Positions 8,709 through 8,919 of a stretch of DNA of 64,000 nt are shown piece by piece. The position numbers and the translations under genes were made by a program. The notes below the pieces were generated by a model. It made no database searches. It was not told the origin of the DNA and saw nothing but the letters and a program-made list of their open reading frames with translations. Location of the stretch: NCBI RefSeq assembly GCF_056712565.1, contig NZ_CM160072.1; one strand, written 5' to 3'. Within the stretch, counting starts at the first letter, position 1. The number at the start of each line of letters is the position of its first letter.

Positions 8709-8919
8709 AGTGAAACCAACCTTGCAAATACGGATTACCGGGAAAACCGGTCTATGATACTGTCCGGTTTATCACTTCGGGAGAAAGGCAGTCCGCCGCA
8801 TAAATCTACCATACAGGTTAGAACCCAAGGCCGGATACGGCATGCGGACTGCAGGCAGAGAAAACTGGCCGATTTTCTCTGCACTGGAGGGATAATACAA
8901 GGTCGGATAAGATGCGGCA
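8709..8919 (-). other. 5' non-coding end of the IS110-family element (region where bridge RNA is encoded in IS621-type elements)
   Basis: ~210 bp between the recombinase start (8708) and the IS3-family element end (8920); assignment is by position only. Confidence 0.3.

Follow-up and report, generated by a model that had tools for sequence, protein, structure and literature searches.

The composite insertion between kgtP and the rrn operon

The region examined belongs to an Escherichia coli chromosome of the UTI89/ST95 type, and lies within a 64-kb window (the whole stretch of DNA that was analysed, 64,000 nt). Bases 7600–8925 of the window are 100% identical to the corresponding region in many strains, among them UTI89, APEC O18 and NU14. 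Reading along the plus strand, the order is pssA, yfiM, kgtP (6101–7400, minus strand), an IS110-family pseudogene, IS1397, and the 5S and 23S rRNA genes of an rrn operon. The two IS genes are labelled 'IS110 family transposase, frameshifted' and 'IS3-like element IS1397 family transposase, frameshifted' in RefSeq, which carries no annotation over 8709–8919, a non-coding segment directly 5′ of the IS110-family recombinase ORF (minus strand). The reference sequences used for comparison, namely the IS621 left end (LE, 191 nt), right end (RE, 105 nt), bridge RNA (177 nt) and protein, were those in Supplementary Table 1 of Durrant et al. 2024 (PMC11208160). Bridge RNA positions follow the numbering of Hiraizumi et al. 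(PMC11208158), such that RNA nt n corresponds to window position 8886-n. The features are listed below with the evidence for each.

7636–7637, minus strand: CT core at the right junction, followed by the minus-strand right target flank ACGCTCCC (7635 downward); junction sequence
7638–7741, minus strand: right end (RE), 104 nt versus 105 nt in the reference, with five substitutions and a 1-nt deletion, terminal ACAGTAT kept; alignment
7742–8708, minus strand: IS621-type recombinase pseudogene; three-frame tblastn, alignment to an intact copy, RefSeq label 'frameshifted'
8709–8885, minus strand: bridge RNA gene, 177 nt; 170/177 identity, landmark bases, covariance model match
8885–8853, minus strand: 5′ stem-loop of the bridge RNA (nt 1–33)
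8852–8788, minus strand: the bridge RNA's target-binding loop (nt 34–98)
8776–8709, minus strand: the bridge RNA's donor-binding loop (nt 110–177)
8828–8836, minus strand: left target guide (LTG, nt 50–58) AUCCGGCCU, AUCGGGCCU in the reference (G53C); alignment to reference
8810–8812, minus strand: nt 74–76 beside the right target guide, AUG, UGC in the reference; alignment to reference
8806–8809, minus strand: right target guide (RTG, nt 77–80) GUAG, same as reference; alignment to reference
8756–8763, minus strand: left donor guide (LDG, nt 123–130) ACAGUAUC, same as reference; equals the RE terminus ACAGTAT plus core
8721–8729, minus strand: right donor guide (RDG, nt 157–165) AUUUGCAAG, same as reference; LE start TGTAT as in the reference donor ACAGTATCTTGTAT
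8886–8899, minus strand: first 14 nt of the LE, TGTATTATCCCTCC, 5′ of the RNA start and containing a −10-like hexamer TATTAT; identical to the reference LE
8900–8901, minus strand: CT core at the left junction; alignment, CT core as stated in PMC11208160
8902–8919, no strand assigned: host DNA made up of one REP palindrome arm with part of its loop, forming the left half of the IS621 target and including one GCA copy (8917–8919); reconstruction compared with real empty sites
8920–10350, minus strand: IS1397 (IS3 family), 1431 bp, in the REP loop, with a GCA duplication (8917–8919 and 10351–10353); RefSeq name, Pfam rve/HTH, inverted repeats
10354–10368, no strand assigned: remaining arm of that REP, GCGTCGCATCCGGCA, immediately downstream from the rrn terminator and 5S rRNA gene; reconstructed empty site
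10430–10545: 5S rRNA

Identity of the left end and its bridge RNA gene

On the minus strand, 8709–8899 aligned gaplessly with all 191 bases of the reference IS621 LE, from the first to the last, and 184 of these positions were identical. Within it, the bridge RNA (8709–8885) matched the published IS621 RNA over its full length (170/177) with no indels, and its 3′ end falls directly at the recombinase start codon (ATG at 8708, minus strand). All 15 of the published landmark nucleotides are kept, comprising a set that includes the conserved flipped-out A, the syn G and bases that contact the recombinase (A43, G48, A67, G72, A116, G121, A150, G155 and U142-U143-C144; PMC11208158) together with A81/U82 and G166/U167.

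A scan of 7400–10600 with Rfam 15 at E<=1 returned the 5S rRNA alone and no bridge RNA family match, and a covariance model was therefore built from relatives. Relatives of the recombinase sharing 33–84% identity were found at 78 loci in other species, including members of Enterobacter, Phytobacter, Cedecea, Methylomonas and Janthinobacterium, and the 200 nt upstream of the recombinase were aligned for 44 of these, leaving out E. coli sequences. From this alignment, RNAalifold recovered two internal loops, the first with its outer stem and hairpin and the second with its stem and hairpin, and 22 of the 25 predicted pairs showed compensatory changes. The fold predicted for the window copy itself also agrees with an IS621-type bridge RNA. 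Paired cells made up 95.1% in the observed register but only 21–45% when the partners were slid by 1–3 columns, and no shuffled alignment reached the observed values by any measure (0/500). When the resulting model was run over the 64-kb window it gave a single minus-strand match, at 8700–8906, with a score of 131.9 bits and an E-value of about 7.5e-39; this match and the 184/191 identity are well outside what chance would produce.

The same relatives were used to examine the guide. The variable 9-nt LTG block equals the 9 nt of DNA found just left of the element at a mean of 6.0 of the 7 non-core positions, compared to 3.95 for shuffled pairings, and this value was not reached in any of 5000 shuffles, even though one relative (L042) was mis-anchored and counts against the result. 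A variable 9-nt block that follows the flanking DNA is the defining behaviour of a target guide. In one relative, from Cedecea sulfonylureivorans (70% protein identity), the LTG is ATCCGACCT, which is exactly the site occupied by the element in the window. Some family members are thereby shown to have the REP variant ATCCGACCT as a natural target.

Taken as a whole, the alignment, the landmark bases and the covariance model match indicate that 8709–8899 is almost certainly the complete LE of a decayed IS621-type element (IS110 family, IS110 group) and codes for a 177-nt bridge RNA. The sequence-only reading had proposed a bridge-RNA-encoding end of an IS621-type element here, and had named a covariance-model search and an alignment to the IS621 left end as the checks; both bear the proposal out. 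It is very improbable that no guide RNA is involved and that the structure simply belongs to the recombinase mRNA as its 5′ UTR or leader, perhaps serving as a translational regulator, or has arisen by accident from REP-like palindromes. The RNA does end exactly at the start codon, and PMC11208160 mentions that small RNAs have been proposed as modulators of recombinase expression in ISPpu9. However, neither a leader nor a palindrome accident fits a variable block that in relatives changes with the flanking DNA, what remains of the REP is outside the RNA, and for an RNA that is 96% identical to this one there is both biochemical and structural proof that it guides recombination (PMC11208160, PMC11208158).

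Like that of IS621, the bridge RNA gene in the window is found in the LE, stops at the recombinase ATG and measures 177 nt within a 191-nt LE (PMC11208160, PMC11208158). The RTG, the handshake guides, the LDG and RDG, the CT core and the donor ACAGTATCTTGTAT are shared with the reference and the target of both is a REP; the two differ in that the partner recombinase gene of the window copy is a pseudogene. IS110 elements of the IS1111 group have a recombinase of the same family and use the same principle of a bispecific guide RNA, but their bridge RNA is in the right end, 3′ of the CDS, whereas in the window element it is 5′ of the CDS and the covariance model matches the LE only.

Seven substitutions distinguish the bridge RNA from the reference (G53C, U74A, G75U, C76G, A89G, A108G and G133A). 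G53C is in the LTG and shifts the specificity to ATCCGGCCTAC from the ATCGGGCCTAC of the reference. U74A, G75U and C76G adjoin the RTG, and both handshake guides are the same as in the reference. A89G converts the U44-A89 pair to a U-G wobble. A108G falls in the linker separating the two loops. G133A affects the foot of the donor-loop hairpin, where it removes the G133-C154 pair and weakens the predicted hairpin from −8.6 to −7.1 kcal/mol; nt 133 also varies among the 44 aligned relatives. The changes in the target-binding loop (G53C and nt 74–76) are natural lineage variation, and belong to a variant class that has already been catalogued.

The guides were compared with the junctions of the element. 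The LTG AUCCGGCCU matches the 9-nt left flank ATCCGACCT at 8 of 9 positions, and the sole mismatch would be a G:T wobble, while the RTG GUAG is complementary to CTAC, formed by the core and the first 2 nt of the right flank. Together, AUCCGGCCU and GUAG specify ATCCGGCCTAC, and the occupied site ATCCGACCT/AC is a 10/11 match to it with the same potential wobble. On the donor side, the end of the RE, the core and the start of the LE together give the donor ACAGTATCTTGTAT, the same as the wild type, which is matched by the LDG ACAGUAUC and the RDG AUUUGCAAG.

Two REP-specific elements in a single REP

Removal of the IS621-type element with one CT and of IS1397 with one GCA restores, immediately downstream of the rrn terminator, an ordinary REP palindrome (...GGGAGCGTAGGTCGGATAAGATGCGGCAGCGTCGCATCCGGCA...). 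The kgtP-rrf spacer is uninterrupted in 4,740 of 5,426 complete E. coli genomes, and the full REP was found empty at this locus in strains 2017-02-2CC and 10035776-3 (GGGAGCGTAGGACGGATAAGATGC...). These real empty sites confirm the boundaries of both elements and place the IS110 end at 8899 rather than at 8919, which answers the call in the sequence-only reading for a comparison with an empty site. The closest empty sites, in K-12 and EcPF14, have a REP allele without the 9-nt GTAGGTCGG arm. A boundary elsewhere, which this allele might have implied, was ruled out by the two strains with the full empty REP and by the 8/9 match between the flank and the LTG. In most E. coli, including K-12, the kgtP-rrf REP is without the GTAGGTCGG arm (compare 8902–8910 in the window), and they therefore have no IS621 target at that locus.

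The neighbouring IS1397 carries terminal inverted repeats (15 of the first 16 positions match), a 3-bp duplication and rve/HTH domains, and is inserted in a REP loop. It is the same in annotation as the IS1397/ISKpn1 group of IS3-family elements specific for REP/palindromic units, in its 1431 bp, its 3-bp duplication and its location in a REP loop. The target choice of IS1397 is determined by protein, with no guide RNA, and is separate from the bridge RNA system. As IS621 and IS1397 are both REP-specific (PMC1525189), their being found close together is accounted for. Here the two classical REP-specific IS of E. coli occupy one REP, IS1397 in the loop and the IS621-type element at the edge of the stem.

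According to the sequence-only reading, the LE of the IS110 element stopped exactly where the IS3-family element begins, and the terminus might have been truncated, altering the donor or target loops. Neither part held. The LE ends at 8899 and is followed by the CT core (8900–8901) and 18 nt of REP (8902–8919), leaving a gap of 20 bp between the two elements (8900–8919). The LE is gapless over its full 191 nt, the donor guides equal those of the reference and no loop is cut. In favour of the proposal that the LE runs up to the IS3 element and may have been truncated by it, with an altered donor- or target-binding loop, the elements are only 20 bp apart and the boundary is invisible unless a reference is available. 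But there is hardly any chance that the proposal is correct. The LE matches the 191-nt reference from its first base to its last, CT and REP sequence follow it, and taking out both elements restores a REP that is uninterrupted in other strains. Moreover, a separate GCA duplication, within the REP loop, belongs to IS1397, and strain IHE3034 has the same IS621 copy without IS1397.

IHE3034 was the sole genome found in which the IS621 pseudogene is present and IS1397 absent. Its REP loop is 5 nt shorter (GATGCG/TCGCATCC at 2780–2800 of its locus, compared with 8910–8919 and 10354–10362 of the window), which suggests that IS1397 was probably lost by deletion between GCG microhomologies, rather than being absent ancestrally. 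Over 1.77 kb there are 13 mismatches between IHE3034 and the window, a large number for a pair of ST95 strains.

When such an element is active, its target-binding loop pairs with both strands of an 11-nt REP target around the CT core, its donor-binding loop pairs with the RE and LE as they are joined in the excised circle, and strand exchange is carried out by a recombinase tetramer. The element in the window inserted in the REP lying between kgtP and the rrn operon, at its edge, and its target guide ATCCGGCCT/GUAG fits the site ATCCGACCT/AC. IS1397 is in the loop of the same REP, 20 bp off, leaving the IS621 end untouched, and the IS621-type recombinase gene later gained two frameshifts and a 12-nt deletion.

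Decay, distribution and possible use of the bridge RNA

The lesions in the recombinase gene were counted against an intact copy from an O104:H4 strain that is identical to the published reference. A single nt is missing near 8391 and another near 8062, and 12 nt are missing near 7872, corresponding to CDS nt 318, 648 and 839–850. The ORF starting at the ATG at 8708 gives an N-terminal fragment that has a DEDD_Tnp_IS110 match (PF01548) and is 99% identical to residues 1–106 of IS621. Two other frames hold the remainder of the protein, and three-frame tblastn covers IS621 residues 1–326 at 93–99% identity. With two frameshifts and a 12-nt deletion in the recombinase gene, the bridge RNA is an orphan: its gene is intact in length, register and architecture, and is without a recombinase partner in cis. 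The RNA gene belongs to the family, but no working cognate recombinase is encoded by the same element and the system as a whole is defective.

Compared with its counterpart at this locus in strain 536, which is annotated as intact with a programmed frameshift, the IS1397 of the window has lost 1 nt near 10155, and orfA is disrupted as a result. Given this deletion and the frameshifted IS621 recombinase, both elements at the locus are dead in the strain that the window comes from.

The exact LE variant (at least 99% identity) was found in 347 records. Five strains were inspected (UTI89, IHE3034, 536, ATCC 11775 and 20Y000092), and in all five the variant is at the same locus beside a frameshifted recombinase; in four of them, the exception being IHE3034, it also adjoins IS1397. 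These strains belong to phylogroup B2, and the locus is an old, fixed and decaying insertion of the B2 lineage. More broadly, matches to the 191-nt LE were found at 13,001 places in 2,237 of the 5,426 complete E. coli genomes, with up to 27 in a single genome. No annotated feature lay under any of 40 sampled matches, showing that RefSeq leaves bridge RNA genes unannotated. In ST131-type strains the single LE match is a 79-nt fragment (LE nt 1–79).

For IS621, which has a CT core, a sigma-70 promoter for the bridge RNA is completed across the RE-LE junction of the excised circle, with the −35 in the RE, and bridge RNA supplied in trans also works (PMC11208160). In the window copy, the TATTAT in the first part of the LE (8886–8899) is a putative −10 box and is kept, and the putative −35 in the RE reads TTGCTG compared with TTGCAG in the reference. 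When the integrated junction was scanned with a consensus, nothing resembling a promoter turned up upstream of the LE. Both the rrn operon and IS1397 are upstream of the bridge RNA and on the same strand, the operon 1.5 kb away and IS1397 directly upstream, and read-through from either onto the bridge RNA is possible.

Judging from its sequence, the bridge RNA would probably remain functional were it expressed and supplied with a recombinase. Set against full function are the location of the −35 in the RE, with no promoter-like site at the integrated LE, and the weakening of the predicted donor-loop hairpin by G133A. It is conceivable, though unlikely, that the orphan RNA is still used, a read-through transcript acting in trans with an incoming or resident recombinase of the IS621 family. 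If so, insertions would be redirected to ATCCGGCCTAC REPs, or the dead element might be re-mobilised. Every guide and landmark base is intact, the ends of the element are matched by its donor guides, and the activity of bridge RNA in trans and the orientation of the rrn operon and IS1397 noted above are consistent with such use, as is a second IS621-like match in UTI89-type genomes. This second match is present in most ST95 (UTI89-type) genomes and lies outside the window. However, better conservation of the LE than of the CDS, which would hint at selection on an orphan RNA, was looked for and not found. Divergence from the reference is 3.7% for the LE, 2.4% for the dead CDS and 4.8% for the RE, the LE being about as divergent as the RE, and there is no sign here of selection on the RNA. 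The composite locus is also in the same place in all five of the B2 strains inspected, which argues against recent mobility. An orphan gene in a decaying insertion remains the preferred reading.

The locus and its bridge RNA are already known. They are included in the covariation input in the supplement of Durrant et al. 2024 (PMC11208160) as entry TBL_ATCCGGCCTAC_seq245, with the target GTTCATGCCGCATCTTATCCGACCTACGCTCCC..., and there is no difference of substance between the window locus and this entry of class TBL_ATCCGGCCTAC. The published seq245 bridge RNA differs from that in the window only by U73C, and the same allele is present in strain 20Y000092. The significance of the locus beyond annotation is little, though it does illustrate that a full-length guide RNA gene can outlast its own recombinase. 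The published 'target' of seq245 (supplement files 11 and 15) starts with GTTCA, which is 5 nt of the IS1397 tip and not host flank, a small contamination of the natural target-context dataset. For catalogues of natural bridge RNA targets, this is a caution that the flank may hold another REP-specific IS, here IS1397, and not host DNA.
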